From a virus: a stretch of 64,000 nt of DNA. Below the pieces are notes generated by a model, which was not told the DNA's origin, did no database searches, and worked only from the letters and a program-made list of their open reading frames with translations. This document shows positions 6,423 to 61,199 of the stretch, one piece after another; the first letter of the stretch is position 1, and each line of letters opens with the position of its first letter. Position numbers and translations under genes: made by a program. The stretch spans positions 192,001-256,000 of IMG/VR virus record IMGVR_UViG_3300045988_171958; one strand, 5' to 3'.

Positions 6423-6432
6423 ACCAAGAGTC

Positions 6433-6517
6433 CCCTGTTAAGCGCCTGGGTCACACAGGAAACGGAAAATGGTCGAGATGATAAATTATATCTCTCGACC
6501 ATTTTTATTGTTTCAGG
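6433..6517 (+). repeat. conserved structured element, copy 2
   Basis: The module ttaagcgcctgggtcacacaggaaacggaaaa is followed by the arm aaaatggtcgaga..tctcgaccatttt and a T-run. It lies just after the stop of the vWA gene. Confidence 0.8.
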
Positions 6518-6527
6518 ATTGATTTTC

Positions 6528-11330: not shown

Positions 11331-12488
11331 ATGAAAACAAATCATGATAAAATTATAGTAAAAATTATTTGTGGACAAAATAAAGGAAATATTTCAAGAT
11401 TTAAAATATCTAAAATAAAAGATAATTATCCAAATATATTAAATTATATAAAAACTAGATATAAAGATAGTAATTCAATAAATGAAACTATTAATAGAAT
11501 GAAATTTGGTGGTCCAGAAATAGTACCAAAATGTCCAGTTTGTGGAAAACCAACAATTTATAAATATAAAAATATATATACATTATATTGTTCTCATGAA
11601 TGTGCTTATAAATCTAAAGAAGTATATGAAAAGAAAAAACAAACTTCATTAAAACATTATGGAGTATCTCACCCAATGAGATCAAAAGAAATAAAAGAAA
11701 AAGTAAAAAATACTAATATTGAAATTTATGGTGCAAAAACATTTGCTGAATCAAAACTTGGTAAAAAATATTTTGAGGAAAATAAAGAATTATTAGTTAA
11801 AAAAACAGAAGAAGGTATATTTAAAAAATATGGTGTTAAAAGTTATCAACAATCAAAAGAATATCAAAATAAAAAAGATGAAATATTAAAAAAAAGAAAA
11901 GAAACAAATTTAAAAAGATTTGGAGAAACTTCTTATTCAAAAACCAATGAATGGAAACAATCTTTTCAAAATAAAAAGCAAGAGATGTTGGAAAAAATGA
12001 AAGAAACATGCCTTAAAAAATATGGAAGAGAATGGTATTTTCAAACAGAAGATTCTAAACAAAAAAATTATATTACACAAAAGAAAAATGGTACATTTGG
12101 AAAATCTAAACCTGAAGTTGAACTTAAAAATTTTCTATTAAATTATTTTCCTGATTTAATATATCAATATAAATCAAAAGAATATCCATGGAAATGTGAT
12201 TATTATATTCCTACATATAAACTTTTTATAGAATTACAAGGTTCTTGGTGTCATGGAAATAAACCTTATGATCCAAATGATGAAGAATGCATTGAATTAG
12301 TTAATTTATGGAAATCAAAGCCAAATGGATTTTATAAAAGAGCATTATATGGATATACAATAGCTGATGTTAAAAAACGTAATTGGGTAAAAACTCATAA
12401 ATTAAATTTTATTGAAATTTTTGATTATTCTGATTTTAATAAAATTCTTAATAATATTAATACATATATCAAAATGCATCAAATGTAA
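11331..12488 (+). mobile_element. free-standing homing-endonuclease-like gene (zinc ribbon + K(K/H)YG repeats + Vsr/PD-(D/E)XK-like C-terminal domain)
   Basis: Lone + strand ORF between the - strand sheath and capsid genes. It has CPVCGK..CSHEC, repeated ..LK(K/H)YG.. modules, and the C-terminal motif CDYYIPTYKLFIELQGSWCHG. It is a paralog of 19321-20427. Confidence 0.65.
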
Positions 12489-19334: not shown

Positions 19335-20427
19335 GATTAATAAAATGTTTTACTTCATCTAAATTAAAAAATTCAATGTAATTCAAATGATTTATTTTTG
19401 CAACTTTTCTTTTATATGGATCTCTTTCTGTCCATATTTGTATTGCATTCTTATATAGAATTTTATTTTCATTTTCATATTTATATTTCCATTTATTAAC
19501 AATGTTACTATCTTCTTCCGATTCAGGATTATAAATATGGTCGCCATGTGTCCAATATCCATTGAATTCAATAAACAAATCTTCACTAGGAATATAAAAG
19601 TCACAATTAAATGGATATCGATTACTATTATATTGTCTTATTACATCCTTATATTTTAATTTTAATAATTCAAAACATTTATCTTCTTTTTTAGATCTTT
19701 TATAAGATCCATTTTTTATTTTAGTTTGAATTATTTTATTTTGTACTTCCGGATCAGATAATTTAATTCTTAAATTTTCTCTTGCTTTAGGACATTGATT
19801 ATAATATTCATATCCGTATTTAATTAAATTGGTTTGTTTAGTTTTTTCTTTACATTTTTCAGATGATAAAGATATTTGGGCTTTTTTCCTTATATCTTCA
19901 TCACAAAAGAAATTTGCATAGCCATATTTTCTAAGTCTTGTTTCTTCTGATTTCTTTTGAATTTCTTTGGAAGAAAGAACACATTTTACTCCATATTTTT
20001 TTAAACAAGTATTTTCTTTTTTATTTTTGATTTCTTTTAATTGGAATGGATTTTCTGTACCATATTTATTCTGCCAAGTCATTTTCATCTTGGTAATTAT
20101 ACCTGGTATACCTTTACCATATTTTTTTAACCTTGTTTCTGCAATATGAATACCAACTAAATTAGATTTTTTCTTACAATCATTAGAACAATATGTCAAA
20201 TATACTAATCCAGGATGTCCATTAAATTTACAATTTTTACCACATACTGGGCACTTTGGAATTTCTTCTATATTATATTTTATTCTATATACAGTTTCTT
20301 TATAAGAGTTAAATTCTTTAAATCTATTCTTTAAATATTTTTTAACTTCATCTGTAAAAGATTTCTTATTTAATTTTAATCTTTTTTTAAAAAATTCATT
20401 AATTATATATTCATCATTGATTTCCAT
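19321..20427 (-). mobile_element. free-standing homing-endonuclease-like gene between the gp47-like and gp46-like genes
   Basis: Paralog of 11331-12488 with CPVCGKNC..CSNDC, LKKYG repeats and CDFYIPSEDLFIEFNGYWTHG. Its stop overlaps the start of the gp46-like gene by 14 nt. Confidence 0.65.
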
Positions 20428-21544: not shown

Positions 21545-21560
21545 TTTTATTTGTATTTAT

Positions 21561-21592
21561 TTTGAAATTTATTTTGTTTATTCTATATTTTA
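21561..21592 (+). promoter_or_regulatory. promoter-like box
   Basis: tttgaaatttattttgtttattctatatttta upstream of 21618. Confidence 0.5.
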
Positions 21593-21617
21593 TCCGAACA
21601 AAATAAATATTAAAATT

Positions 21618-22278: not shown

Positions 22279-22635
22279 ATGAAAACAGATTATAAATTTA
22301 GTGAACTAGTAAAGATGATAAAGAAGCATTATGTTGATTCTTTATCAAATGATGTTCTTGATATGCAACAAGAAATTGAAAGATTGGGAACTGAAGTAAT
22401 GGACTTGAAGTCAAGAAATGAATCATTGAAGAAAACTATTGAGAATGACAAATTCAATGTCGAGAATGATCCTTCTTATATATTAGGAAAAGCAGTTGCA
22501 AAGTATGTGAAAGATACAATCAAGACTGATGTAATGAAGAATTTGAATGTTGAAGTAGATTCTGAATGGGACCCTTATTCTGGCCAACGAGACCATAATC
22601 ATACAACAGAAATTTCTTGGAATGAAGATGAATAA
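22279..22635 (+). CDS. hypothetical coiled-coil protein
   Basis: The track ORF starts at TTG 22261. I used the first ATG at 22279. Confidence 0.5.
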   Translation: MKTDYKFSELVKMIKKHYVDSLSNDVLDMQQEIERLGTEVMDLKSRNESLKKTIENDKFNVENDPSYILGKAVAKYVKDTIKTDVMKNLNVEVDSEWDPYSGQRDHNHTTEISWNEDE

Positions 22636-22637
22636 AA

Positions 22638-22670
22638 TTTTGAAATTTTATAATTTTATTCTATATTTTA
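22638..22670 (+). promoter_or_regulatory. promoter-like box
   Basis: tttgaaattttataattttattctatatttta upstream of 22692. Confidence 0.5.
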
Positions 22671-22691
22671 TTCGAACAAAAATAAAATGAT

Positions 22692-27374: not shown

Positions 27375-27391
27375 GAAAAATTTAAATAAAT

Positions 27392-27422
27392 TTTGAAATT
27401 TTAAGAATTGGTTCTATATTTA
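27392..27422 (+). promoter_or_regulatory. promoter-like box
   Basis: tttgaaattttaagaattggttctatattta upstream of 27468. Confidence 0.5.
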
Positions 27423-27467
27423 GTATGTTAAATATTAAATGTAGAACCAATTTAAGTAATAAGTATT

Positions 27468-29172: not shown

Positions 29173-29181
29173 TTAGATTCT

Positions 29182-29268
29182 CTAGGATGGCGCCTGGGTC
29201 ACACAGGGAGCGGATAATTATGATTCAGTATATTCTATCAGTTGAGATAATTTTAACGTTTCCTAGTG
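29182..29268 (+). repeat. conserved structured element, copy 3
   Basis: ggatggcgcctgggtcacacagggagcggataatt.. About 85 nt are nearly identical to copy 4. Confidence 0.85.
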
Positions 29269-29281
29269 AATTTTACAAAAA

Positions 29282-42486: not shown

Positions 42487-42497
42487 GTATATAAAAG

Positions 42498-42528
42498 TTT
42501 GAAATATTCCTTATAGATTCTATATTAT
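42498..42528 (+). promoter_or_regulatory. promoter-like box heading the tRNA array
   Basis: tttgaaatattccttatagattctatattat lies about 150 nt upstream of tRNA-Phe. Confidence 0.5.
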
Positions 42529-42676
42529 ATATGTAATTACTTAATAAACAATTACAATACATGAAATAAGATCCAGAACTTAATACTTCTGAGTTGGTAG
42601 GTGACCAATAGCTTAAGGATATAAAGCAATTCATGCTAACAGGATTTTCTAGAGATCCGTAATTTGTTTATTAATT

Positions 42677-42749
42677 GGGTAAATAGCTCCAATGGTAGAG
42701 CACTAGATTGAAGATCTAGGTGTTGTTGGTTCGAATCCATCTTTACCCA
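42677..42749 (+). tRNA. tRNA-Phe (GAA)
   Basis: Hand-folded: acceptor gggtaaa/tttaccc, anticodon stem ctaga/tctag, loop ttGAAga, T-loop ttcgaat. Confidence 0.85.
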
Positions 42750-42761
42750 CAAAAATTATTT

Positions 42762-42835
42762 GGTTCTATAGCTCAGATGAATAGAGCAGGATTCTTCTAA
42801 AATCCGGGTCATGGGTTTGAATCCCATTGGAACCA
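42762..42835 (+). tRNA. tRNA-Arg (TCT)
   Basis: Acceptor ggttcta/tggaacc, D arm gctc..gagc, anticodon stem ggatt/aatcc, loop ctTCTaa. Confidence 0.85.
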
Positions 42836-42865
42836 CTAATTAAGTTCTTTGAAATATTTATTTAA

Positions 42866-42951
42866 GTTCCATTAGCTCAGTTGGTTCCGTAAGGCTAGAG
42901 AGCATCCGACTTTTAATCGGAGGGTCACGGGTTCGAGCCCCGTATGGAACA
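42866..42951 (+). tRNA. tRNA-Lys (TTT) with enlarged 21-nt D-loop
   Basis: Acceptor gttccat/atggaac, anticodon stem tccga/tcgga, loop ctTTTaa, T-loop ttcgagc, genomic CCA follows. The D-loop agttggt[tccgtaaggc]taga carries about 10 extra nt. Confidence 0.8.
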
Positions 42952-43276
42952 CCATGGTAGTCAAGAGATCTCTGCTGAGAATGAATAAAGAATGAGAAGC
43001 TCATCATCATTAACATCTGGATAATCAACAGATTTATGTGAATACCTCTGTTGGTCGTATGTAAGAGGTTTAATTTGGACAAGACCAAGAATTACATAGA
43101 CAACTTTGCATGGGCACCGGAAAAAGATCGAGAGATAATTAATGATGAATAACAAAGTTATTTAAACAAACCGTCCTAATTTGTTTGGTAACAGGTTGTT
43201 ATTGTTGAATCATATCATTGAAGTAGCTAATCAATTGAAGAAGGGAACAGCAATTGAAATACCAAATCCCTTGTAT

Positions 43277-43361
43277 GGAAGTATGGGTGAGTGGTTTAAA
43301 CCAGCACACTGCTAACGTGCCGAACCTAAAGGTTCCGAAGGTTCGAATCCTTCTGCTTCCG
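43277..43361 (+). tRNA. tRNA-Ser (GCT)
   Basis: Acceptor ggaagta/tgcttcc, loop ctGCTaa, long variable arm cgaacctaaaggttccg, T arm gaagg-ttcgaat-ccttc. Confidence 0.8.
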
Positions 43362-43377
43362 CGAGAAATTTATGATT

Positions 43378-43465
43378 GGAAGTTTGGTAGAGTTGGTTTA
43401 ATACATCAGTCTTGAAAACTGACGAACTGTAAAAAGTTCCGCAGGTTCGAATCCTGCAGCTTCCG
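43378..43465 (+). tRNA. tRNA-Ser (TGA)
   Basis: Acceptor ggaagtt/agcttcc, anticodon stem tcagt/actga, loop ctTGAaa, long variable arm, T arm gcagg-ttcgaat-cctgc. Confidence 0.85.
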
Positions 43466-43480
43466 CAAATGTATATATAA

Positions 43481-43551
43481 CTGCCATTGTCCGAGTGGTT
43501 AGGTGTAGGTCCGCAAAATCTACAACATTGGTTCGAATCCAATATGGCAGT
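43481..43551 (+). tRNA. tRNA-Cys (GCA)
   Basis: Acceptor ctgccat/atggcag, anticodon stem taggt/atcta, loop ccGCAaa (C33 is unusual), T arm attgg-ttcgaat-ccaat. The D arm is weak. Confidence 0.7.
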
Positions 43552-43558
43552 CATTACA

Positions 43559-43759
43559 TACAAGAACCAATAATGACATTGAAGTTCATTGAAAGAGATT
43601 GATACGTCGAGTGGACACCATATTCGCGATATAATGTTGCTCTCCTCAAATAGAAATATTAAGTGGATATATGCTGCAGTAAATATACCCAGTATAAGTT
43701 TTCTATGTTGTCTATAGATATCGATGGCTAAAAGGTCTATAGAAACTCTCGTTCTTGTA
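43559..43759 (+). ncRNA. candidate structured inter-tRNA RNA (between tRNA-Cys and tRNA-Val)
   Basis: 201-nt spacer closed by the 9-bp stem tacaagaac/gttcttgta. No ORF and no tRNA fold. Confidence 0.3.
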
Positions 43760-43763
43760 TTTT

Positions 43764-43838
43764 GGTTCAATAGCTCAGTTGGTTTAGAGCGTCTGTTTTA
43801 CAAGCAGAAGGTCCAAAGTTCGAATCTTTGTTGAACCA
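43764..43838 (+). tRNA. tRNA-Val (TAC)
   Basis: Acceptor ggttcaa/ttgaacc, D arm gctc..gagc, loop ttTACaa, T-loop ttcgaat. Confidence 0.85.
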
Positions 43839-43911
43839 CATAATAAACCGGAGAACTAGCAGTGCCGTGAGAATAAGATCCGATTGCAAAGTCAACCCGG
43901 TTATAGTATAT

Positions 43912-43984
43912 GCAGATGTAGCTCAATGGTTAGAGTGCTTCCTTGCCATGGAAGAAGTTGTGAGTTCGATCCTCATCATCTGCT
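43912..43984 (+). tRNA. tRNA-Gly (GCC)
   Basis: Acceptor gcagatg/catctgc, anticodon stem cttcc/ggaag, loop ttGCCat, T-loop ttcgatc. Confidence 0.85.
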
Positions 43985-43994
43985 CAATATATAT

Positions 43995-44072
43995 GCATCA
44001 GTGGTGTAGTTGGTGGTGCACATCTGGCTTCCAACCAGAAGGCTTTCGCGAGTTCGAATCTCGTCTGATGCT
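43995..44072 (+). tRNA. tRNA-Gly (TCC), 8-nt variable loop
   Basis: Acceptor gcatcag/ctgatgc, anticodon stem tctgg/ccaga, loop ctTCCaa, T arm gcgag-ttcgaat-ctcgt. Confidence 0.8.
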
Positions 44073-44079
44073 CTAATAT

Positions 44080-44167
44080 CTAGGTGTACTCTAATTGGTC
44101 AGAGCCTTGATTTGGGATCAAGTGGATACTGATAAAGTGGATGCAGGTTCGAGTCCTGTCACCTAGA
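44080..44167 (+). tRNA. tRNA-Pro (TGG) with 20-nt variable region
   Basis: Acceptor ctaggtg/cacctag, D arm ctct..agag, anticodon stem cttga/tcaag, loop ttTGGga, T arm gcagg-ttcgagt-cctgt. The variable region tggatactgataaagtggat contains a tggat direct repeat. Confidence 0.7.
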
Positions 44168-44173
44168 CTATAT

Positions 44174-44247
44174 ACACCGATCAGTCAATTGGTTTAGGCT
44201 AGCAGTCTCCAAAATTGCTAATATTGGTTCGATTCCAGTTCGGTGTG
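44174..44247 (+). tRNA. tRNA-Trp (CCA)
   Basis: Acceptor acaccga/tcggtgt, anticodon stem gcagt/attgc, loop ctCCAaa, T-loop ttcgatt, genomic CCA follows. Confidence 0.85.
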
Positions 44248-44277
44248 CCAGTGTTTAATTTTAAATGTTGTTAATAT

Positions 44278-44682
44278 ATGAGTAACATGAGAAATAGAGC
44301 TTGGAGAAGAAAGAAGACTGAATCAAAATGGAATTCTCGTTGTAAGAAGTTCATGTTTGATAGTATTTTTAGAGATGGTGATAAAGAATATTCATTCAAC
44401 ATAAGTGAAGGTAATGGCAAGAAAATCAGACGTACAATAATGATTCCTAATTTGAGAAGACCAACTTCATGGAAAGAAATGAAGAAACTTGATCCGTGGG
44501 CTAGGTTTTTGAAGAATGGTTCTGGATATCGTACTTATATATCAGACCAGATGGATGCTAAGCGAAAAGTTAAGTTGCAACGTATCAACAACAAGAAACT
44601 TATCAATGAAGGAATTCAGGAATATGATGACATATATGATGAAACTTTAGAAGATAATTTCTATCTTAATAATGTAGCATAA
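44278..44682 (+). CDS. small highly basic protein embedded in the tRNA array
   Basis: The ATG ORF has an N-terminus MSNMRNRAWRRKKTESKWNSRCKK.. and lies between tRNA-Trp and tRNA-His. Confidence 0.55.
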   Translation: MSNMRNRAWRRKKTESKWNSRCKKFMFDSIFRDGDKEYSFNISEGNGKKIRRTIMIPNLRRPTSWKEMKKLDPWARFLKNGSGYRTYISDQMDAKRKVKLQRINNKKLINEGIQEYDDIYDETLEDNFYLNNVA

Positions 44683-44693
44683 ATTATGTACAT

Positions 44694-44766
44694 GGGTTCT
44701 TTCGTTCAATGGTAGGACAGGAGGTTGTGGTTCTCCTTATTAGAGTTCGATTCTCTAAGGAACCCC
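44694..44766 (+). tRNA. tRNA-His (GTG)
   Basis: Acceptor gggttct/ggaaccc, anticodon stem ggagg/tctcc, loop ttGTGgt, T-loop ttcgatt. Confidence 0.8.
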
Positions 44767-45149
44767 AAACGTGATCAGAATATACTGGTGATTGGACAAA
44801 AACAATGTAGCTGAGAAGAGTAATGCAATAATACGCGTAAATAATTGCATGAAACATATAATAAGCGCGGATGAAAAAAGCCTTACCTATGGCCGCCTCC
44901 CTACATTTGTATTTTGAATGTCAATGAAACAATAAGTATAAGGTTTGGTAACGCTTATTAAATTAATTGGTTCATTCAAGTTCACTATGCAGTCTGGGCT
45001 TTATAGAGCCTTGTAGTTTAAAGCATCGTAAAACATTCTGGTTATAAGAGAATATATCACCCAAGCGAATTGTCATGAGATTCGTACACCTGCTTAAGAT
45101 GGTTGAATTATGTGGGAAGTAATTCTATAAAATAGGGCATGCCCACAAT

Positions 45150-45223
45150 GGCGTAATAGCTCAGTTGATTAGAGCGCATCATTCATGCTGATGAGGTCGT
45201 TGGTTTGAGTCCATCTTACGCCA
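45150..45223 (+). tRNA. tRNA with CAT anticodon (Met or Ile2; identity not resolvable by eye)
   Basis: Acceptor ggcgtaa/ttacgcc, D arm gctc..gagc, anticodon stem catca/tgatg, loop ttCATgc. Confidence 0.8.
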
Positions 45224-45303
45224 CAGCTTAAACGGACCGAACTTAGTCTTTTATGCATCTTTTCTCTAGGGTAAGGTGTTAAACACCAAAAGAAAAGGCA
45301 CCA

Positions 45304-45386
45304 GGGAATATGCTGTAATTGGTAGCCAGGCCAGACTTAGGATCTGGTGCTTCAATAGCGTGTGGGTTCGAGTCCCACTATTCCCA
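45304..45386 (+). tRNA. tRNA-Leu (TAG)
   Basis: Acceptor gggaata/tattccc, anticodon stem ccaga/tctgg, loop ctTAGga, long variable arm, T arm gtggg-ttcgagt-cccac. Confidence 0.85.
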
Positions 45387-45649
45387 CAATCGTTGAAGTA
45401 ATGTAGTTTATGAAAGTCTAACATTAGTAATGGAAACCTAATGGCCCTCTATGTTATCCTAAAGAGAATAAAGTACGATTAGTAAATGAGTTATGGATCT
45501 GTTTAAACAGATCGCTTCAGAACTTCTAAAGAAGTCAGTAAGTTAGATGAAACCACCATAATATAATATCTGGATAACTATATGTATGGATAGGAATGAA
45601 GTTTTAGGTGCAGACACCGGTAGCGTCACCTTTTGTAATTCCTAGTATT

Positions 45650-45735
45650 GCTCCGATGTTGGAATTGGTAGACAAGATGGACTTAAAATCCATTGGTCAG
45701 TGATGACCGTACGGGTTCGATCCCCGTTCGGAGTA
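45650..45735 (+). tRNA. tRNA-Leu (TAA)
   Basis: Acceptor gctccga/tcggagt (G1.U72), anticodon stem atgga/tccat, loop ctTAAaa, variable arm tggtcagtgatgaccgt, T-loop ttcgatc. Confidence 0.8.
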
Positions 45736-45736
45736 C

Positions 45737-45904
45737 AAATTGATAGCAATCCTGAATAGAGAAGGAAGAAAGACGAGTTATGAAGGTAAGTATGCTTAAA
45801 GCTGCACGTATAATGCAGTGCATACCAAGGATAAATAACTAAAACACACCATATAAACTCTACACGAAGGTCTGATGCAGGAAGTGCGCACTTGCTATCA
45901 ATTT
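45737..45904 (+). ncRNA. candidate structured inter-tRNA RNA (between tRNA-Leu TAA and tRNA-Leu CAA)
   Basis: 168-nt spacer closed by the perfect 13-bp stem aaattgatagcaa/ttgctatcaattt. Nested inside are the helices gtatgc..gcatac and ctgca..tgcag. Confidence 0.35.
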
Positions 45905-45913
45905 ATTTTTATT

Positions 45914-45997
45914 GCTTTCATGGCGGAATTGGTAGACGCAACTGTCTCAAAAACAGCTGATAGAAATATCATGAAGGTTCGAGTCCTTCTGGAAGTA
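45914..45997 (+). tRNA. tRNA-Leu (CAA)
   Basis: Acceptor gctttca/tggaagt (with G.U pairs), loop ctCAAaa, variable arm tgatagaaatatcat, T arm gaagg-ttcgagt-ccttc. Confidence 0.75.
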
Positions 45998-46031
45998 CTT
46001 ATTATTCAATTAAACAATTATTTTATTTTAC

Positions 46032-47033
46032 ATGAGATTACCTTTGGTGCCACTTTCAGAATGGGTATTGAATAGACAGAATGAATTTGAATTAAAATTA
46101 TTTGAATCATTCAGACAAGAATTCAATATAAGAGACAATGAAGAATTTAATATTTGTGAAAGATATGGGTCTTATGATGGACAAATGAAATTCTGTAGAG
46201 ACTTTGCAACAATGTTGTCAGAAGACATACAAGACAATCTTAATATGACTGATTTTAGATATGACTTAAATAAAGAAGAAATTAAAGATTATTATAAAGG
46301 ATTGTTTTTTGACAATATTCACTTGATATGTAATACAATGTGTCAGACAGGATATCAAGCAAGAAAATCTGAATATAATCCAAAAACCCTTACATTTAAA
46401 GATGTATATATCTATATAAACATCAAGGAATACAATAAAGAAAAGGACATTACTGTTGCACTTACTCATGAGCTTACACATGCTTATGATGATTGGAACA
46501 GACACTCAAAAGAAGGAGTTGAAACATTACTTGATATTGAGAAAAACACAGGATATGATAAATTAATTGATAAGATAAAGTCAAGTGATTTCAATGAAAA
46601 GATTGCATCTGAAATGATTTATACATTCACTTCAGTAGAAAAGAATGCTTACATGTCAGAATTGACCGCTGAAATAGAAAGTATAGGGGAAAAAATCAAA
46701 GATTATACATATATGGATGCGTTAAAAATATTTAAGAATTCAGATACATGGAAAAGATTCAATCAATTCAAAGAATATTTTATGTTGATGAATAATGAAG
46801 AAAAGAAAGTATTGTGTGATGTATACAGAGAAATAAAGAAATCAAGCAATACAGACAATAAGATATTAAAACAATTGAAATATGATATACAAGAAACATT
46901 TGATAAGATGTGTACTATCATACCAAAGATTTACTATTATTACAAAGAAAAGTATTCAAATAAAGAAATAAAGAAAGAAAAAGTAAGTGAATCAAGATTA
47001 AATAGAATAAAGAAAAGATTTAACATAATTTAA
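46032..47033 (+). CDS. hypothetical HExxH protein embedded in the tRNA array
   Basis: The ATG ORF contains a zinc-metallopeptidase-like HELTH motif (ALTHELTHAYDDW). Confidence 0.55.
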   Translation: MRLPLVPLSEWVLNRQNEFELKLFESFRQEFNIRDNEEFNICERYGSYDGQMKFCRDFATMLSEDIQDNLNMTDFRYDLNKEEIKDYYKGLFFDNIHLICNTMCQTGYQARKSEYNPKTLTFKDVYIYINIKEYNKEKDITVALTHELTHAYDDWNRHSKEGVETLLDIEKNTGYDKLIDKIKSSDFNEKIASEMIYTFTSVEKNAYMSELTAEIESIGEKIKDYTYMDALKIFKNSDTWKRFNQFKEYFMLMNNEEKKVLCDVYREIKKSSNTDNKILKQLKYDIQETFDKMCTIIPKIYYYYKEKYSNKEIKKEKVSESRLNRIKKRFNII

Positions 47034-47096
47034 CTAAATAATATTGTCCACTTTACTATTTATATATTATATTTAAATGAATAAATGAATAAAACA

Positions 47097-47210
47097 ATGA
47101 GAACTATCACAAATACATATTATCAAATAATTGATGAACAGGCCATTGATAATCAACGAATGGTTTGCTCTTGTTTTGGTATATGTGAAAGTGATGAGAT
47201 TGACTTTTAA
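47097..47210 (+). CDS. possible small protein (37 aa, MRTITNTYYQIIDEQ..CSCFGICESDEIDF)
   Basis: Short ATG ORF not in the track, followed by a hairpin/T-run at 47254-47286. Confidence 0.25.
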   Translation: MRTITNTYYQIIDEQAIDNQRMVCSCFGICESDEIDF

Positions 47211-47253
47211 ATACGTCCTCCACTGTTTAAACATTCAACAATACAATCAAGAC

Positions 47254-47286
47254 AAGAGCAATACAGAAATGTGTTGCTCTTTGTTG
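47254..47286 (+). terminator. hairpin + T-rich tail
   Basis: aagagcaa-tacagaaatgtg-ttgctctt followed by tgttg. Confidence 0.4.
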
Positions 47287-47358
47287 ATTTAGCTTCAGCT
47301 GTACTGAAGCATGAAGTACTAAAAAAGTTGATAAAAAATGAAAATTTTTTGAAAGATC

Positions 47359-47390
47359 TTTGAAATACTGATAAATCAAATCTATATTAT
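47359..47390 (+). promoter_or_regulatory. promoter-like box
   Basis: tttgaaatactgataaatcaaatctatattat upstream of 47435 and the second tRNA sub-cluster. Confidence 0.45.
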
Positions 47391-47434
47391 ATATGTAAGT
47401 TATATAAAATATCACATTTAAAATTATAATTATT

Positions 47435-47656
47435 ATGACAAGATTAGAATCAAACATTAAGATATTGAATATTATAAAGCAACTTGCCTATATGTTTCCA
47501 GATATGAGATTCATTCAGTTGCTTACAACTGTTGATGCAATTCTTGGTACTGATCAGTTCTATGAGGAATCGGAAGTTACATTGAATAGAATCAAAGAGA
47601 AAATTGAATATCAACAAAGAAGATATGGTAAGTTGACTGATATTGATATTAATTAG
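47435..47656 (+). CDS. hypothetical protein (73 aa)
   Basis: ATG ORF downstream of a promoter-like box within the tRNA region. Confidence 0.5.
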   Translation: MTRLESNIKILNIIKQLAYMFPDMRFIQLLTTVDAILGTDQFYEESEVTLNRIKEKIEYQQRRYGKLTDIDIN

Positions 47657-47666
47657 ATAATATAAA

Positions 47667-47741
47667 TGGCGCGTTCGACAAGTGGCCTAAGTCGCCAGTT
47701 TTTCACGCTGGTATTCACCGGTTCGAATCCGGTACGCGCTA
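47667..47741 (+). tRNA. tRNA-Glu (TTC)
   Basis: Acceptor ggcgcgt/acgcgct, anticodon stem ccagt/gctgg, loop ttTTCac, T arm accgg-ttcgaat-ccggt. Confidence 0.8.
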
Positions 47742-47752
47742 CGATAAATATT

Positions 47753-47835
47753 GGGTAGATAGATAAGTGGTTAAAATGGTTTGACTGTAAATCAAATGGC
47801 TTCGGCCTTCGGGAGTTCGAATCTCTCTCTGCCCA
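47753..47835 (+). tRNA. tRNA-Tyr (GTA)
   Basis: Acceptor gggtaga/tctgccc, anticodon stem tttga/tcaaa, loop ctGTAaa, long variable arm (bacterial type II Tyr), T-loop ttcgaat. Confidence 0.85.
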
Positions 47836-47984
47836 CCGGGTCAAAAGAGCAAATGATAATCATGACAAAGTGATGTGTGAACAATTTAGATATAATCAAC
47901 GCTTTACGTTGCTTGCAACTAAAGTTATTGTGAAAGCCACATAGGAGATTGATGTGCAGCTAACTGAGACTTTAATCAGTATTT

Positions 47985-48061
47985 GGAGTATTAAGCCCTG
48001 TTGGTAAGGGAACTAGACTGTCACTCTAGTAAAACTAAGGGTTCGAGTCCCTTATGCTCCG
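47985..48061 (+). tRNA. tRNA-Asp (GTC)
   Basis: Acceptor ggagtat/atgctcc, anticodon stem ctaga/tctag, loop ctGTCac, T arm aaggg-ttcgagt-ccctt. Confidence 0.85.
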
Positions 48062-48070
48062 CAAATAGAT

Positions 48071-48142
48071 TGGACTATGGTGTAACTGGAAACACTACAG
48101 ATTTTGGTTCTGTCATTCGGAGTTCGAACCTCCGTGGTCCAA
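48071..48142 (+). tRNA. tRNA-Gln (TTG)
   Basis: Acceptor tggacta/tggtcca (U1-A72, as in bacterial tRNA-Gln), anticodon stem acaga/tctgt, loop ttTTGgt, T arm cggag-ttcgaac-ctccg. Confidence 0.85.
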
Positions 48143-48148
48143 CAATTT

Positions 48149-48259
48149 AGGTGGTTATATCAGTTGGTTAACTTAGTTCTTGAACAGAACATAAGTGATG
48201 TTCATTAGATAGCTTGCCTGATAAGCAAGAGGTCATAGGTTCAAGTCCTATATCACCTA
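48149..48259 (+). tRNA. tRNA-Ile (GAT) interrupted by a 36-nt insertion in the D-loop
   Basis: Acceptor aggtggt/atcacct, D stem tatc/gata, canonical D-loop agttggttaa followed by a 36-nt insert, anticodon stem cttgc/gcaag, loop ctGATaa, T arm atagg-ttcaagt-cctat. Removing the insert restores a normal 75-nt tRNA. Confidence 0.7.
48169..48207 (+). repeat. about 40-nt mini-element, copy inside the tRNA-Ile(GAT) D-loop
   Basis: taacttagttcttgaacagaac-ataagt-gatgttcatta. Confidence 0.75.
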
Positions 48260-48267
48260 CAAGATTC

Positions 48268-48300
48268 TTTGAAATTTTGGATATAGTTATTCTATATTTA
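48268..48300 (+). promoter_or_regulatory. promoter-like box inside the tRNA array
   Basis: tttgaaattttggatatagttattctatattta upstream of tRNA-Ile(TAT) and the endonuclease gene. Confidence 0.5.
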
Positions 48301-48312
48301 ATATAAATAAAT

Positions 48313-48386
48313 ACTCCAGTAACTCAGTTGGTTAGAGTGCTCGGCTTATACCCAAGTGGTCGGGGGTTCAAGTCCCTCCTGGAGTA
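48313..48386 (+). tRNA. tRNA-Ile (TAT)
   Basis: Acceptor actccag/ctggagt, D arm actc..gagt, anticodon stem ctcgg/ccaag (one C-A mismatch), loop ctTATac, T arm cgggg-ttcaagt-ccctc. Confidence 0.7.
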
Positions 48387-48397
48387 CTATTAAATGT

Positions 48398-49021
48398 ATG
48401 GATTTAATAAAAAGTTATGCAAGTAAATGTTGTACAGGGCAAAAGAAAATAGCTTATTGTGTAGATTGTGGGAAAGAACTTATAATTTATAAAAGAGCTT
48501 CTTCAAAAACTTGTAGATGTGATAATTGCAGAAAAAACCGCATTAGACAAAAAAGACTACAATATAGATTAAATTTTTTAAATAATGATTATGAAATTCA
48601 TTTTGGTAGAAAATATTCAAAAGAAAGCTGGCTAGCATTACATAATGGTGGTTGTAAAGGAATACAACATCAAGGTGATTTAAGACGTAGTAAAAATGAA
48701 ATAGAATTTTGTAAATTATGTGAAGAATATTTTAATAATGTTAAACATAATGAATGTATATTTAATGGATGGGATGCAGATATAATAATAGAAGATATAA
48801 AATTCGCGGTATTATGGAATGGTCCATGGCATTATAAACAAATTACGAAATCTCATTCAGTTAAGCAAATACAAAATAGGGATAAAATAAAGATAAAAGA
48901 AATTAAAGAATCTGGTTGGACACCTTATATTATAAAAGATATGGGTAAGGCAAATAAAGATTTTGTTAAAGAAAAATTTGATGAATTCTTGAAATATTTA
49001 AAAGAAAATACTATTATTTAA
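48398..49021 (+). mobile_element. homing-endonuclease-like gene (zinc ribbon + Vsr/PD-(D/E)XK-like domain) inside the tRNA array
   Basis: I set the start at ATG 48398 because the track ORF start lies inside tRNA-Ile. Motifs are CVDCGK..CRCDNC and WDADIIIEDIKFAVLWNGPWHY. Confidence 0.6.
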
Positions 49022-49037
49022 ATAGTTAATTATATAT

Positions 49038-49119
49038 CGTGGGTGAGTGAAACGGATATTTATAAATCACGTCGGTCTCATAAGCCGTACAATAGTGGGT
49101 TCGACTCCCACACCCATCA
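49038..49119 (+). tRNA. second CAT-anticodon tRNA (Met/fMet/Ile2-like) with 16-nt D-loop and 1:72 mismatch
   Basis: Acceptor cgtgggt/acccatc (C1xC72), D stem gtga/tcac, loop ctCATaa, T arm gtggg-ttcgact-cccac. Confidence 0.6.
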
Positions 49120-49143
49120 CTAACAAAGAAATTCTAAACTTAA

Positions 49144-49216
49144 GGATCGATAGCTCAGTTGGTAGAGCAACTTGCTGTTAACAAGAAGGTCGTCAGTTCG
49201 AATCTGGCTCGGTCCG
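49144..49216 (+). tRNA. tRNA-Asn (GTT)
   Basis: Acceptor ggatcga/tcggtcc, D arm gctc..gagc, loop ctGTTaa, T-loop ttcgaat. Confidence 0.85.
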
Positions 49217-49413
49217 CAAACGGCAACGATTATTTAGAGGCGGCTTAACTGCTACTCGAATGTGATATGGGTTGGATAATCACCAACATGGTCAAGGACA
49301 TGCACACTTCTTGATATTGACGCGACAAAACAAGATGAAGCCTAATATTACGGTGAAAGTCGAACTCTTTCTTGAATTCATCCTCTTTGTCAATTGATAG
49401 AATCCTTGAATTT

Positions 49414-49488
49414 GGGGTCAATAGCTCAGTTGACTAGAGCACTTGATTTGCATTCAAAAGGTCCAGGGTTTGAATCCCTGTGGCTCCA
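49414..49488 (+). tRNA. tRNA-Ala (TGC)
   Basis: Acceptor ggggtca/tggctcc including the G3.U70 Ala identity pair, loop ttTGCat, T arm caggg-tttgaat-ccctg. Confidence 0.85.
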
Positions 49489-49630
49489 CAAGTAATAGAG
49501 AGGACCTAGCATTTAACTAGGTGGTTGTTAGAGGTGTCAGTGCAATCTACAGGTACTCCTGATAGCTCAATGTATTACGAGAATATGGTCATGATAGTTT
49601 GCACATCTGATGCCATATTTGATTTTATAT

Positions 49631-49703
49631 GCCATTATAGCTCAATTGGTAGAGCATCTGTCTTGTAAACAGAAGGTTATCGGATCATACCCGGTTAATG
49701 GCT
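49631..49703 (+). tRNA. tRNA-Thr (TGT), non-canonical T-loop
   Basis: Acceptor gccatta/taatggc, anticodon stem tctgt/acaga, loop ctTGTaa, T-loop atcatac (A54 instead of T54). Confidence 0.75.
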
Positions 49704-49726
49704 CAAATTATTTATGGAAAAGAAAA

Positions 49727-51269: not shown

Positions 51270-51713
51270 ATGGACTTTTCTAAAATGACTGTATATATAA
51301 AGAAAGCAATAAAAGGTAATTTCTTCAGTAAGCTCATTCAACAGAATTCAGGATATAGCAGCAAAAGCTTCTTTCTAGTTGTTGTTACATTCATAGGTAC
51401 TCTACTGCTTGCTGTACCAATATTCTCTCTTACTATAGAAGCTTGGTACAACCATACTATAACTACTGACTTGACAGCAATGGCAGCTTATATAACAGCA
51501 GTAGCAGCTGTATTCACATCAGTAGGTCTTACAAAAGTGTGGTCAGAAAAATATGAGCATAAACTTCCTGGTCCTGATGGAAAATTTGGAACAAATGATG
51601 ATATTATCATAAATGTTACAGATGAAGAATATAATAAAATATTAGATGTAATGAATAAGCAATGCAATCACCAGGATGGCGGCTGGGATGGCCAGGGAGC
51701 GGATAATTGCTAA
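51270..51713 (+). CDS. membrane protein (two predicted TM helices)
   Basis: Hydrophobic segments FFLVVVTFIGTLLLAVPIFSLTI and AAYITAVAAVFTSVGLT. The last 15 codons lie inside copy 5 of the conserved structured element. Confidence 0.55.
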   Translation: MDFSKMTVYIKKAIKGNFFSKLIQQNSGYSSKSFFLVVVTFIGTLLLAVPIFSLTIEAWYNHTITTDLTAMAAYITAVAAVFTSVGLTKVWSEKYEHKLPGPDGKFGTNDDIIINVTDEEYNKILDVMNKQCNHQDGGWDGQGADNC

Positions 51714-51757
51714 TAAGTATAATTTATCAGATGACCAAATTATCCGCCATCCTGGTG
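51669..51757 (+). repeat. conserved structured element, copy 5 (diverged, overlaps CDS end)
   Basis: ggatggcggctgggatggccagggagcggataatt.. It is closed by the perfect 14-bp stem caccaggatggcgg/ccgccatcctggtg. Confidence 0.75.
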
Positions 51758-51781
51758 AATATTTTATATCAAGAACTGAAG

Positions 51782-54580
51782 TTAGTTGAATTGCCTGAAT
51801 CTAGCTCTCAATGGATCTTGGTTATATTGTCCAGGCATATCATATATGCTTGGTTCATTTCCATATCCATTAGGTGATCCATAGAAATCATTCATAGATG
51901 GCAATCCTTGTTGCATACCTGTATTGTACATTGTATACATGTTAGGTATACTGGTACTTGCATTACTTTGTGTTTCTCTATATATACTAGAAGATTCTGC
52001 AGCAGCAGTAGGTAAATTTCTGTTATCCAATGATACTGTTATCTGTTTCTCTTCTTTCTTCTTTTGCAATACATTAGACATCATATCTGCTATCTTCTTA
52101 AGCATATCTAGTTTCTTCATTTCTGATTCTTCCTTTTCTATTTGTTCCCATTGTCCAGTAGCTTTCATCTCTATCTCCCACTCTTCCATGAAATCTTTAT
52201 ATTTTGTAGTATTCTTAAGAAGTGGAAGTTGTACAAAAGTCATTATCAAATCATCATGGCCGTATGCAGCAGCATAACTGCCATTTCCATTCTTATCTTC
52301 AAAATTCTCAAGCTCTGAAACAGTAAGCAAGTCTGTTATTATGACATCAAACTTCTCTAACATCATCTTAAGCAATGCACATGCAGATATCTTAGTAGCA
52401 TGACTCAATCTGATACCTGGAATTGTCTTGCTGTTTTTGAATCCATTCAAATTAGCAATATTGTCTTCTTGACTGCCTTTCTTGTATCTTATCAAATTAG
52501 CCAAGTCAAATTCACCTAATGGATTTACTTGCCATCTCCAACTTGCCTCTGGCATATATTCAGGTTCATTCAAATTCTTAAGATAGTTGTAGAATAAAGC
52601 ACCATAAGTATTCCATTCTACTGACACTATAGTCTTATTAGGATTGAATAACTGTCCATACAATACCCAGAACTCTAAGCTAGCTTGTTCCAAATCTATA
52701 GTATTGCAATGCCAATATCCTATTTGTTCAAACTTATCTTTTCCTATTACTTCTATTATGTTGAATGTTGTAAAGTCATTACCACCACCTTCTGCTAAGT
52801 CAACTAATATGATGAACCATCCAATCTTCAAATAATGCAAGTCATAATCTTTCTTGAACTTAAATTCTGTCTTATGTAAGCTGAAATACCAACTATCATC
52901 TGTAGGTGTCTCAAACAAGTAAGTCAAGTCTCTTATCTTTCCTAAGCATTCTCTTGATACAAGACATTTATCAGATGCAGAGAATTGTGTACCATATTGA
53001 TAGTAGAAAGCTTCTTCTGAACCTAAGACACCAACCATCATAGCTTTCCAAGCATTATCTCTCTTCTTCCAAATATGATTGTCAGGATCCCATTGAGGAA
53101 CTTGCCACCAATCTACTTTAAATGGAGCATACATAGACTTTCCTGTTTCTGCGGCATGCCATAGCTTATAGAACAAATTGAATCCATTTTGTGTTGACAT
53201 GATACATATATTAGAGCTTGTATCTGCAGTAACAGTAGGAAGAATGTTGTTGTAGAACAATTCAACATCATTAGGTGGACACCAAGCAAACTCATCAAGT
53301 ATCAAGAAGTTTATTGTCTTACCAAGACCGGCAGTAGGAGAGAAAGCTTCAGTAGATATTGTAGAGTTGTTGTCAAAAGCTATCTCTGACTGATTCCACT
53401 TCAAAGTACCAAGCTTCAGATGGTAAGGAAGATACAGATACATATCTTTTATCTTCTTTATCAAATCTTGTCCTGCTGGACCAGACTTAGAAAGTATCAA
53501 TGCATTTCTATCATTTCTGAACAATACTGACCAAAGACAGAATATTGCTGTAGTTGTTGAGTTGTGACTCAATATTCCATTAGTATAATATCTGTGATAA
53601 GGATGTTCTACTGAAACATCACACATAGATACTTTTGTTTTAGATACTGAAACAGACTTTACCATAGATGGTCCTCTATCTGTCATTATTTTAGATAGGT
53701 TTTCAACAAGTTTATCAGCATATATTATATCTAAGTTTTCATCAAACAACATGTGTTTGTCTGCACATTCTATAGAATACCCATTTTCAAGGATTACCTT
53801 ATATATTGCAAATGGCTTAGTATTGTAAATGTATGATATTGGTTGATATCCAACATCTGTCAATACTTTTATCCTATATTCAGAAATATCTATTTCTTTA
53901 GTGGTTTTACAGTTATCTAAAAGTTCCTTATGAAATACAAAATTGTATTCTAACCAATCAACAACTTCTACTGCTTTATAGTTTTCTTTTTTATATAGAT
54001 AATATTTCAGTTTCCAGAAAGCAGAGTTATCAAACAAGTTTTGAAATTCATAAAAAGGCAATTCAAACAAATAGTCAGATCCACTTTTTACATATTTGAA
54101 ATTCTTAAAAAGATATGTGAATTTTTGTTTACCAAACTGAATACCATAATTGTTTATGAATGCATTAGTAAACAAAAACTTCACCGTTGTATTTTGTAAA
54201 AGGCACTTTCCACTTTGTCTGCAACTTAAAAACAGGCTGAATCTGTTTTGTTGAAGATGTCTCATGTAATCTTCCTGATAGTCACGGAGTATTACTGGTT
54301 GCAAACCAGTTGGGGTCATAAGATAGCATTTGGTAGCAAAGTACAATGGATCTTCCATACAATGCATATAATCTTCTATCTCTTCTTGTGTACGCTTGAA
54401 GACCAGATCTGGCTTCAATAACTTAGTATTCTTACCAATAAAAGGGTTTGCTTTCAATGGCAAACCCTTCTTCATAGCATCTACAGCTTTCTCAAGTACT
54501 GAACAGCTCCAGATAACTGCTTCTGCCTCTTTTCCTCCTTTATCTCTCTTTACTGGATCAAATTCAAATTCTTTAGCCAT
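51782..54580 (-). CDS. terminase large subunit (T4 gp17-like) interrupted by an intein
   Basis: The Walker A motif is split as ..LSCRQSGK / intein / STTTAIF... Downstream ATPase and nuclease regions (FLILDEFAW, ..) are present. Confidence 0.85.
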   Translation of the reverse strand: MAKEFEFDPVKRDKGGKEAEAVIWSCSVLEKAVDAMKKGLPLKANPFIGKNTKLLKPDLVFKRTQEEIEDYMHCMEDPLYFATKCYLMTPTGLQPVILRDYQEDYMRHLQQNRFSLFLSCRQSGKCLLQNTTVKFLFTNAFINNYGIQFGKQKFTYLFKNFKYVKSGSDYLFELPFYEFQNLFDNSAFWKLKYYLYKKENYKAVEVVDWLEYNFVFHKELLDNCKTTKEIDISEYRIKVLTDVGYQPISYIYNTKPFAIYKVILENGYSIECADKHMLFDENLDIIYADKLVENLSKIMTDRGPSMVKSVSVSKTKVSMCDVSVEHPYHRYYTNGILSHNSTTTAIFCLWSVLFRNDRNALILSKSGPAGQDLIKKIKDMYLYLPYHLKLGTLKWNQSEIAFDNNSTISTEAFSPTAGLGKTINFLILDEFAWCPPNDVELFYNNILPTVTADTSSNICIMSTQNGFNLFYKLWHAAETGKSMYAPFKVDWWQVPQWDPDNHIWKKRDNAWKAMMVGVLGSEEAFYYQYGTQFSASDKCLVSRECLGKIRDLTYLFETPTDDSWYFSLHKTEFKFKKDYDLHYLKIGWFIILVDLAEGGGNDFTTFNIIEVIGKDKFEQIGYWHCNTIDLEQASLEFWVLYGQLFNPNKTIVSVEWNTYGALFYNYLKNLNEPEYMPEASWRWQVNPLGEFDLANLIRYKKGSQEDNIANLNGFKNSKTIPGIRLSHATKISACALLKMMLEKFDVIITDLLTVSELENFEDKNGNGSYAAAYGHDDLIMTFVQLPLLKNTTKYKDFMEEWEIEMKATGQWEQIEKEESEMKKLDMLKKIADMMSNVLQKKKEEKQITVSLDNRNLPTAAAESSSIYRETQSNASTSIPNMYTMYNTGMQQGLPSMNDFYGSPNGYGNEPSIYDMPGQYNQDPLRARFRQFN
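53561..54205 (-). mobile_element. intein (215 aa) inserted in the TerL Walker A motif
   Basis: It starts with Cys right after SGK (CLLQNTTV), has a block B-like GYSIECADKHMLF, a block F/G-like VSMCDVSVEHPYHRYYTNGILSHN, and is followed by Ser+1. Excision restores RQSGKSTTT. Confidence 0.8.
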
Positions 54581-60482: not shown

Positions 60483-60569
60483 TATGAATTTTTGTTTATA
60501 TAAACTTTATAAATAATAATAAGTTTTTTGAAATTTTTTATGTTTGTTCTAAATTTATTTGCAACAAGA

Positions 60570-60598
60570 TTGAAATAAATCAAGATTGTTCTATATTA
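60570..60598 (+). promoter_or_regulatory. promoter-like box
   Basis: attgaaataaatcaagattgttctatatta upstream of 60638. A second weaker box lies at 60527-60557. Confidence 0.4.
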
Positions 60599-61024: not shown

Positions 61025-61054
61025 CTTAATGCATTCACTAGGTTCTATAGGGTT

Positions 61055-61143
61055 CTCCTGTTAAGTGCCTGGGTCACACAGGGAGCGGATAATTATGATT
61101 CAGTATATTCTATCAGCTAAGATAATTTTAACGTCCCTGTGTG
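61055..61143 (+). repeat. conserved structured element, copy 4
   Basis: ttaagtgcctgggtcacacagggagcggataatt..acgtccctgtgtg. It lies just after the stop at 61024. Confidence 0.85.
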
Positions 61144-61199
61144 AATGTTTTTGTTCAACATCTATTGAACTATTTTTAAATAACCAAAGAAATACGAAC

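Follow-up and report, generated by a model that had tools for sequence, protein, structure and literature searches.

A diverged copy of a gene-end hairpin repeat between a small-protein gene and the convergent terL gene in a human-gut jumbo phage

The DNA analysed here, referred to as the window, is a stretch of 64,000 nucleotides (nt) corresponding to positions 192,001 to 256,000 of the virus record IMGVR_UViG_3300045988_171958, and window coordinates are used throughout. In this window, a gene for a protein of 147 amino acids (aa) and the large terminase gene (terL) converge, and the 68-nt gap between their stop codons is almost entirely filled by a ~100-nt element, which is the sole structure there. 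The element belongs to a family of repeats, the copies of which within the window are numbered 1 to 5, and it is referred to as copy 5. An original prediction, made from the sequence alone, had described positions 51669-51757 as a diverged copy of the repeat that keeps its fold through compensatory changes and doubles as the C-terminal coding sequence of the neighbouring protein. We find that copy 5 is a genuine, diverged member of the family, that its closing stem persists with different sequences in different lineages and that the protein tail encoded within it is not conserved. The features of the locus are as follows:

51270-51713, + strand: gene of the 147-aa protein, a small protein with two hydrophobic segments (list of open reading frames (ORFs); 563 homologues)
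51666-51765, + strand: whole element, copy 5 of the ~100-nt repeat (covariance model R1; direct-repeat families D2 and D6)
51669-51682, + strand: 5' arm of the closing helix (X1), the class-A 5' flank CACCAGGATGGCGG, coding for His134 to Gly138
51683-51695, + strand: side hairpin CTGG-GATGG-CCAG branching from the 5' arm (minimum free energy (MFE) fold)
51699-51708, + strand: 5' arm of the inner stem, GCGGATAATT (sequence and register energies)
51709-51737, + strand: apical region with the stop codons TAA TAA (51711-51716) and the conserved loop motif GTATAATTTATCAG (51717-51730)
51738-51757, + strand: continuous 20-nt 3' arm AATTATCCGCCATCCTGGTG, non-coding and clade-specific (exact reverse complement of 51669-51682 plus 51703-51708)
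51758-51769, + strand: T-rich tail AATATTTTATAT directly 3' of the stem (terminator-like scan)
51782-54580, - strand: terL, convergent (ORF list, protein and domain searches)

The claim that copy 5 is a diverged copy of the repeat is borne out by covariance model R1, which was built from 50 standard copies of other phages and included neither window sequences nor sequences of the copy-5 type. The model matches 51666-51765 on the + strand over its full length (model positions 1-100, 45.7 bits, E 8e-8), and it detects exactly five copies in the window, all on the + strand. The remaining four are:

501-600, + strand: copy 1, standard form, in which the 3' arm pairs with the core (R1 90.6 bits; fold)
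6429-6529, + strand: copy 2, with a degenerate 3' arm (R1 39.2 bits; fold -33.5 kcal/mol)
29177-29276, + strand: copy 3, in which the partner of the 3' arm, TTTCCTAGTGAAT, is the 5' flank, just as it is in copy 5 (R1 70.6 bits; fold)
61052-61151, + strand: copy 4, standard form (R1 98.6 bits)

An ordinary terminator hairpin, AAAATGGTCGAGA..TCTCGACCATTTTT, comes after the core of copy 2. The 23-nt core of the repeat occurs four times in the window (0 expected) and 40 times in seven IMG/VR contigs of 167-283 kb, and it is present in 63 human-gut metagenome loci. Altogether, 121 distinct variants were collected, with a mean folding z of -4.2, and the primary sequence of the repeat is conserved at more than 15 sites per genome. 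The invariant core GCGCCTGGGTCACACAGGGAGCGGA is not intact in copy 5, where 6 of the 23 core positions are substituted (alignment column 20 and columns 26-30), so that a core search allowing 3 mismatches misses this copy.

The family also includes sequences of other types. In a sister lineage, the orthologous sites of copies 3, 4 and 5 carry type II elements; their helix is wholly different (CGCTGGCGGCC/GGCCGCCAGCG), and their architecture is the same as that of the standard type I. The site orthologous to copy 5 in L190 (relatives are designated here by L numbers) is occupied at 1145-1240 by a third sequence type, which opens with an 11-bp hairpin of perfect complementarity, AAGTCTCCAGG-AAGCCG-CCTGGAGACTT; counting this one, the family comprises at least three lineage-specific versions. 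Visibly decayed copies still persist at orthologous sites in the L078, L093 and L012 groups. In the Rfam search, only 25 tRNAs reach the gathering score in the window, and permissive scans of copies 5 and 1 returned only sub-threshold noise from microRNA and small nucleolar RNA hairpins. The repeat family is unannotated, and it is abundant in widespread human-gut jumbo phages.

The copy-5 sequence quoted in the original prediction is present (GGCGGCTGGGATGGCCAGGGAGCGGATAATT at 51678-51708), and the closing helix of 14 bp is indeed perfect, CACCAGGATGGCGG (51669-51682) being complementary to CCGCCATCCTGGTG (51744-51757). The proposed inner stem, GCGGATAATT/AATTATCCGC (51699-51708 and 51738-51747), can pair as well, but not independently of the closing helix, with which it shares CCGC at 51744-51747; two GCGG sites, one in the inner-stem arm and the other at 51679-51682, compete for this tetranucleotide. 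Consequently, the 3' side represents a single 20-nt arm (51738-51757), and of the 24 claimed long-range pairs at most 20 can form simultaneously. The reverse complement of this arm is CACCAGGATGGCGG followed by ATAATT, and on the 5' side these two parts are separated by a 20-nt insert (51683-51702) carrying the small side hairpin, in which CTGG (51683-51686) can pair with CCAG (51692-51695). No residue of the protein varies more than Gly141, the codon of which lies in the loop of the side hairpin. The MFE of copy 5 is -39.4 kcal/mol (z = -4.18), a value that none of 200 dinucleotide shuffles matched, and the 14+6 and 10+10 registers of the long stem are nearly equal in energy (-33.3 and -34.2 kcal/mol, respectively). 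Loop positions AGTATA..T..A..A are near-invariant in both alignments, A1 and A2. The 3' arm AATTATCCGCCATCCTGGTG is replaced by a different one in L188 and by another in L189.

Standard copies use another pairing partner for their 3' arm (..CGTCCCTGTGTGAAT or TTTTCCGCTCCCTGTGTG), namely the core itself (TCACACAGGGAGCGGAAAA), while the 5' flank, for example TCCAGG-ATGGCG-CCTGGG, folds into a small hairpin. Since the 5' flank (X1, ..TCACCAGGATGGCG) resembles the core (X2, ..TCACACAGGGAGCG), a few changes would let the 3' arm pair with either. The MFE fold pairs the 3' arm with X2, the core, in 94 of the 121 variants and with X1, the 5' flank, in 16, leaving 11 with another arrangement; the X1 class includes copy 5, window copy 3 and the L075 group. 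All forms follow a common plan, in which an unbroken 3' arm faces a 5' arm split by a hairpin of ~20 nt. With the inserted hairpin in parentheses, the split arm is ATTC (TCCAGG-ATGGCG-CCTGGGTC) ACACAGGGA in standard type I, CACCAGGATGGCGG (CTGG-GATGG-CCAG..) ATAATT in copy 5 and TGACGC (CAG-GAGTCG-CTG..) CTGGCGGCC in type II. When all type I copies were pooled, RNAalifold recovered only three invariant pairs of the local hairpin, because the register of the long helix differs among copies.

This comparison bears directly on the compensatory changes that had been invoked for copy 5. The local hairpin had been thought to be retained with different bases; in the gapless family alignment of 42 sequences, however, pairs C21-G33, T22-A32 and G23-C31 are identical in all 42, copy 5 included. 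The copy-5 hairpin is merely shifted in register by one position, and three of its four pairs are the standard bases in the same columns. Likewise, the closing helix was said to have changed on both strands, but its 5' strand is the usual class-A flank aTTCACCAGGATGGCG, which is also found in L003, L030 and L124, where it is unpaired with the 3' end, and the 3' arm alone differs from the standard. The difference between copy 5 and standard copies is a switch of the 3'-arm partner from the core to the 5' flank.

Among close orthologues of copy 5, we identified seven independent substitutions in the 14-bp helix, one of which (A13G) yields a G-U pair, whereas the other six (G18A, G19A, G19T together with 3'-arm G94A, C9A, A10T and G22C) disrupt a pair and are uncompensated. 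The loop and the downstream flank vary in these orthologues, whereas the non-coding 3' arm is almost invariant, a pattern that fits constraint on that arm. More distant comparisons are more informative about the stem. Three lineages share the translated 5' half (QDGGW(D/G)GQGAD), yet they have three different 3' arms, each making a perfect stem of 13-14 bp. In the window clade, the arm CCGCCATCCTGGTG pairs with the inner part of X1. In L189, the arm TCCTGGGGACTTTT, after which comes TTTTTAT, pairs with the outer part of X1, AAAAGTCCCCAGGA. The arm of L188, AATCCGCTCCCTG, which is the standard AATCCGCTCCCTGTGTGAAT, has the core CAGGGAGCGGATT as its partner. Comparison of the window with L189 reveals one true compensation, A51670-T51756 to C-G, which changes His134 to Pro. 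Over 14 copy-5 orthologues, 93% of alignment cells are paired; two pairs changed on both sides (matched by 31 of 500 shuffles), and the covariation score was matched by 7 of 500 shuffles. Across the 50 standard copies, the outer helix is invariant except for a single double change, in L089, which is compensated (CACACAGGTAGCGG pairs with CCGCTACCTGTGTG). Complete helix replacement between types amounts to only 3-4 independent events.

Thus, the idea of selection on structure retains support from the three 3' arms with their 13-14-bp stems and from one compensated pair, but not from the evidence originally offered for it, as the hairpin is conserved and the 5' arm unchanged. Independent variation of the two strands, which had been named as an outcome that would speak against this idea, is seen in the six uncompensated changes of close orthologues; deeper orthologues keep the stem with new arms. 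Taken together, the closing stem appears clearly to be maintained, although the covariation statistics are modest. How it came to be perfect is another matter. The 3' arms of the window and L188 differ by many bases at once, and hairpin-templated replacement may account for this at least as well as stepwise compensation. Similarly, the perfect 20-bp complementarity of copy 5 could equally be the product of a single templated (hairpin-copied) mutation or of stepwise selection. Counts of G-U versus A-C mismatches were also considered as a means to discriminate between RNA and DNA, but independent events are too few.

The last 15 codons (51669-51710) of the 147-aa ORF lie inside the element and end in ..NHQDGGWDGQGADNC, followed by TAA TAA. 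The original prediction had left two options, dual coding or an ORF that has extended into the element, and it is the latter that agrees with the orthologues. In L043, L190, L191 and L192, the ORF stops before the element or within its first bases, and the tails (..ENANDTSFS, ..DMGQFDDCCNNQ, ..CGPEDPPQHF and ..GDSFDDNINN, respectively) are unrelated. The protein of a more distant relative, L044, has 95 aa with no element behind it. Conservation among the 563 homologues of the 147-aa protein is confined to the N-terminal ~130 aa. Within the window clade, 13 of 16 tail residues are variable compared with 44 of 131 in the body, and there are natural truncations of the tail (..QDGG, ..QDGGCDC and ..WDGQ). 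Neither Pfam nor PHROG gave a match for the protein, tail included. A conserved C-terminal domain, with the nucleotide similarity being secondary to it, is therefore not what the hypervariable and sometimes truncated tail looks like. The only point in favour of true dual coding, in which NHQDGGWDGQGADNC would be a functional C-terminal peptide and the protein would constrain the nucleotide similarity to the repeat, is that QDGGW(D/G)GQGAD is kept in three lineages with protein bodies roughly 75-85% identical. However, the same nucleotides are equally conserved in all non-coding copies, so that nucleotide constraint alone explains the similarity of the tail. Given in addition the earlier stops with unrelated tails in four other lineages, a tail about three times as variable as the body, its truncations and the lack of any family or domain match, we consider dual coding highly improbable. 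The 147-aa ORF has instead run into the element in one sub-clade, the tail being a by-product and not a domain.

The position of the repeats relative to genes and their 3' ends bears on what they might do. In ~90% of copies, a same-strand stop codon is found 0-65 nt upstream, and the downstream gene is co-directional or convergent. Copy 5 conforms to this, as it overlaps the end of ORF 51270-51713 in sense orientation, and three of the five window copies, copy 5 included, lie between convergent genes. Of 56 distinct 3' ends in the family, 45 (80%, against a background of 17%) have a T-rich tail behind them. Copy 5 likewise combines a stable stem with a T-run, and the terminator-like scan flags 51745-51757 plus AATATTTTAT. 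The central hairpin of some copies, namely copy 2 and the L075 group, is a textbook terminator, and the orthologous stem of L189, AAAAGTCCCCAGGA..TCCTGGGGACTTTTT, lies between an A-run and a T-run, as in two-way terminators. Because of the gene-end position, the T-runs and the terminator-like hairpins, we read the family as repeated intrinsic-terminator or 3'-end hairpins, and copy 5 is probably a variant of such a gene-end hairpin, functioning as an intrinsic terminator and/or a stem-loop that protects the 3' end. Nonetheless, it is worth pointing out two exceptional sites, where the repeat is apparently antisense between co-directional genes: L009 7034-7133 (also L002, L007 and L022), checked by sequence, and L011/L031, judged from ORF context only. 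They appear to be insertions where a terminator would be harmful.

Based on these observations, the following scheme may be proposed. A clade of 170-300-kb human-gut jumbo phages places a GC-rich palindromic repeat of ~100 nt behind many genes in sense orientation. In the transcript, the element would fold into a long hairpin composed of an unbroken 3' arm and a 5' arm interrupted by the side hairpin. With a U-rich tail after this hairpin, factor-independent termination and/or 3'-end protection would be its most likely role. The 3' arm can close either on the invariant core (X2), as in standard copies, or on the 5' flank (X1), as in copy 5. Copy 5 would serve to insulate terL and the 147-aa gene, which converge on it. 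The ORF upstream of it has lost its earlier stop in one sub-clade, where it now reads 15 codons into the 5' arm.

Several observations sit uneasily with a terminator or 3'-end hairpin. Nearly all paralogues have the same 25 nt in the 5' half (GCGCCTGGGTCACACAGGGAGCGGA), whereas their 3' arm drifts, and the core found at orthologous sites is specific to each phage lineage. A plain terminator gives no reason for either; the lineage specificity may reflect homogenisation within genomes or co-evolution with a factor. The T-run is missing from about 20% of copies. The 3' arm of copy 2 and of the L075 group remains complementary to the 5' flank although a complete terminator precedes it, and RNA terminated there would lack that arm. 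A ribosome stopping at 51711-51713 would cover the 5' arm and, if transcription and translation are coupled, could weaken termination. Finally, six of the seven substitutions in the copy-5 helix are uncompensated, and covariation in the 50 standard copies is not above that of shuffles (87 of 500).

Part of this pattern would be explained if the repeat were a dedicated structured RNA forming a three-way junction, the invariant core of which is recognised by a phage or host factor, its terminator look being secondary; the alternation between X1:3'-arm and X2:3'-arm pairing might then regulate read-through. This view accommodates a 25-nt core that is invariant across paralogues with variable flanks, the two alternative pairings that recur and the split-5'-arm architecture common to type I, copy 5 and type II. 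Moreover, lineage-specific cores at orthologous sites are what co-evolution with a trans-acting factor would suggest, though homogenisation would suggest them as well. However, there is no Rfam match even at permissive thresholds, the covariation statistics are weak, many decayed copies persist at orthologous sites and there is no candidate partner among the proteins examined. We therefore regard a dedicated structured RNA as improbable. Its most elaborate version, in which a lineage-specific 25-nt core of the junction is read by a co-evolving phage factor and the choice of 3' arm sets termination versus read-through at more than 15 gene ends, seems more doubtful still. If that version were true, translation of the 5' arm in ORF-overlapped copies such as copy 5 would feed into the switch.

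The repeats may also be viewed at the level of DNA, as selfish or semi-selfish palindromic elements resembling miniature inverted-repeat transposable elements (MITEs) or REP sequences, or as recombination linkers, with stems generated by hairpin-templated repair. Gene-order breaks and insertions do abut the elements, and one upstream gene can be joined to up to four downstream sequences. L124 has a 2-kb gene inserted exactly at the 3' arm after the copy-2 site, L053 has a 1.1-kb gene inserted after the copy-3 site, and L052 joins, through an element, a relative of the copy-2 upstream gene to the copy-4 downstream gene. The homogenised core within each lineage would also be expected from such elements, and so would the 3'-arm change between L188 and the window, which affects many bases at once as a templated event would. 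Against this stand the absence of target-site duplications at the flanks of 46 copies, the lack of clear terminal inverted repeats spanning the conserved 5' part, the stability of orthologous sites across lineages with ~77% identical proteins and the absence of a transposase among the ~13 window ORFs scanned. No insertion is seen flanked by two elements, that of L124 having an element on one side only. The strong bias in sense orientation and T-runs points to a role in the transcript. We find the DNA-level explanation rather unlikely; it is compatible with a terminator or 3'-end hairpin and does not exclude it.

Comparison with known systems is instructive in this respect. The closest parallel is provided by promoter-early stem-loop (PeSL) cassettes of T4-type phages, conserved intergenic terminator/promoter motifs whose stem-loops terminate transcription (PMC2839356, PMC4122927) and which also act as recombination points (Arbiol et al. 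2010, PMC2839356; Comeau et al. 2014, PMC4122927). The repeat likewise is a ~100-bp conserved intergenic motif present in many copies in a large phage with a T4-type terminase, forms a stable stem-loop after genes and is found at boundaries where the gene content of relatives differs; the terminator role is experimental for PeSL, whereas here it is deduced from sequence. The resemblance is partial on the promoter side. Behind a subset of copies lie an AT-rich stretch and a conserved promoter-like motif, TTTGAAAT-N-TAnnTTT, which by a strict pattern is found in 9 of 117 distinct downstream flanks against a background of 0.4% (8 of ~87 downstream classes); copy 5, with a convergent gene ahead of it, lacks this motif. 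The conserved part of the repeat is the hairpin, with its 25-nt core, branched stem and partner-switching 3' arm, and a promoter follows only a minority of copies without being part of the conserved unit; PeSL has a sigma-70 promoter. In addition, there is no sequence similarity to PeSL, and insertions abut the elements, but none is seen between two of them. Based on this analogy, the element would functionally resemble the stem-loop half of PeSL, and we do not class it as a PeSL.

Ordinary intrinsic (Rho-independent) and two-way terminators share with the repeat a GC-rich stem, followed by a T-run, located just past a stop codon in sense orientation. They differ from it in that its stem is much longer and branched, its sequence is conserved at more than 15 sites and, in copy 5, the 5' arm is partly translated. 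REP, BIME and REPIN sequences and Correia-type MITEs are short palindromic repeats concentrated at the 3' ends of bacterial genes, where the long RNA hairpins they give rise to can terminate or stabilise transcripts. They too contain similar units in direct and inverted order, corresponding here to X1, X2 and the 3' arm; unlike them, the repeat resides in a phage genome at stable orthologous sites without target-site duplication. No transposase or RAYT was detected among the ~13 window proteins scanned. The organisation of a Correia-like MITE is not seen either, as the conserved 5' part lies outside the inverted repeat and the flanks of 46 copies show no duplication. Hairpins processed by RNase III in phage T7 are repeated, intergenic and in sense orientation, with an irregular duplex of ~20 bp containing an internal bubble. 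The repeat resembles them in its intergenic sense hairpins with an irregular ~20-bp duplex, but has T-runs after the stem and shows no sequence or Rfam match.

A number of other candidates were considered and rejected. An integron attC site, an imperfect palindrome located at the end of a cassette, starts with RYYYAAC and finishes with GTTRRRY. In the repeat, the order of such motifs is reversed on either strand, and copy 5 has neither; GTTAAGC occurs in some 5' flanks only, and TTTTAAC is on the 3' side. For a hairpin of a diversity-generating retroelement, the copies are far too many and located at unrelated genes. A CRISPR-repeat mimic is not supported, as the exact core (only exact matches were considered) was found in no bacterial genome except two metagenome-assembled genomes (MAGs) labelled 'Romboutsia', whose contigs carrying the core look like mis-binned phage. 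A signal for stop-codon recoding or read-through was dismissed because there is no suppressor among the 25 tRNAs and stops are mostly TAA. A late promoter in the conserved loop (TATAAATT, cf. the T4 late promoter TATAAATA) showed no enrichment upstream of window genes.

Some further features of the phage deserve mention. The large terminase is a distant T4-type protein according to the search of a phage protein database; the nucleotide search of the phage database gave no match. The terminase has 932 aa in the window, L038 and L040-L042, but only 720-750 aa in relatives both close and distant (L039, L043, L183, L188 and L190). Residues 218-292 give a weak Pfam match to intein splicing, and the length difference suggests an intein carried by some relatives and missing from others. 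An array of 25 tRNAs (42677-49704, + strand) covers most amino acids and includes no suppressor tRNA. The multi-copy DUF7487 gene family, with weak matches to Vsr endonuclease and zinc ribbon, is represented at 11331-12488 (+ strand) and 19321-20427 (- strand) of the window and at L124 9757-11676, L136 10991-11992 and L053 8499-9524. These genes are present or absent at different sites among relatives, as with the 2-kb insertion of L124 and the 1.1-kb insertion of L053 described above, and the family behaves like free-standing homing-endonuclease genes. The repeats as targets of such mobile endonucleases were rejected: the DUF7487/Vsr-like genes are beside elements in L124, L136 and L053, but most paralogues are not, ~40 of them being 1-10 kb away.

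A conserved promoter-like family, TTTTGAAATTT-N(~17)-TTCTATATTTTAT..GAACAAAA, is found upstream of + strand gene blocks (647-713, 21547-21613, 22625-22691, 27378-27437, 42491-42530 and 60526-60579), and the phage genes are without Shine-Dalgarno sequences. Together, these two features weakly suggest a Bacteroidota-type -33/-7 promoter and a host of this kind. The 'Romboutsia' label of the two MAGs, with which promoters of this type conflict, may accordingly be suspected of being a binning artefact, probably but on similarly slender grounds. A second conserved module, AACTTTAGTTCTTGAACAGAACTGAAAGAG, with the hairpin AGTTCT-TGAACA-GAACT, is located at 599-628 of the window and behind several repeat copies with different upstream genes (L007, L017, L019, L028, L034, L075 and others). 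Just upstream of copy 1, there is a tandem 62-nt duplication (384-435 and 446-497) with the palindrome AATGACT-TGC-AGTCATT in each unit. At least eight tandem copies of a 36-nt unit (12 codons) are present at 14838-15233 within a 525-aa ORF (14474-16051, - strand).

By itself, a variant gene-end hairpin overrun by an ORF is an ordinary finding. The repeat, however, marks gene ends and module boundaries, and it could aid the annotation of transcription units. In addition, one 5' half with three closing arms is a natural series in which to ask whether selection preserves such stems or hairpin-templated mutation creates them.

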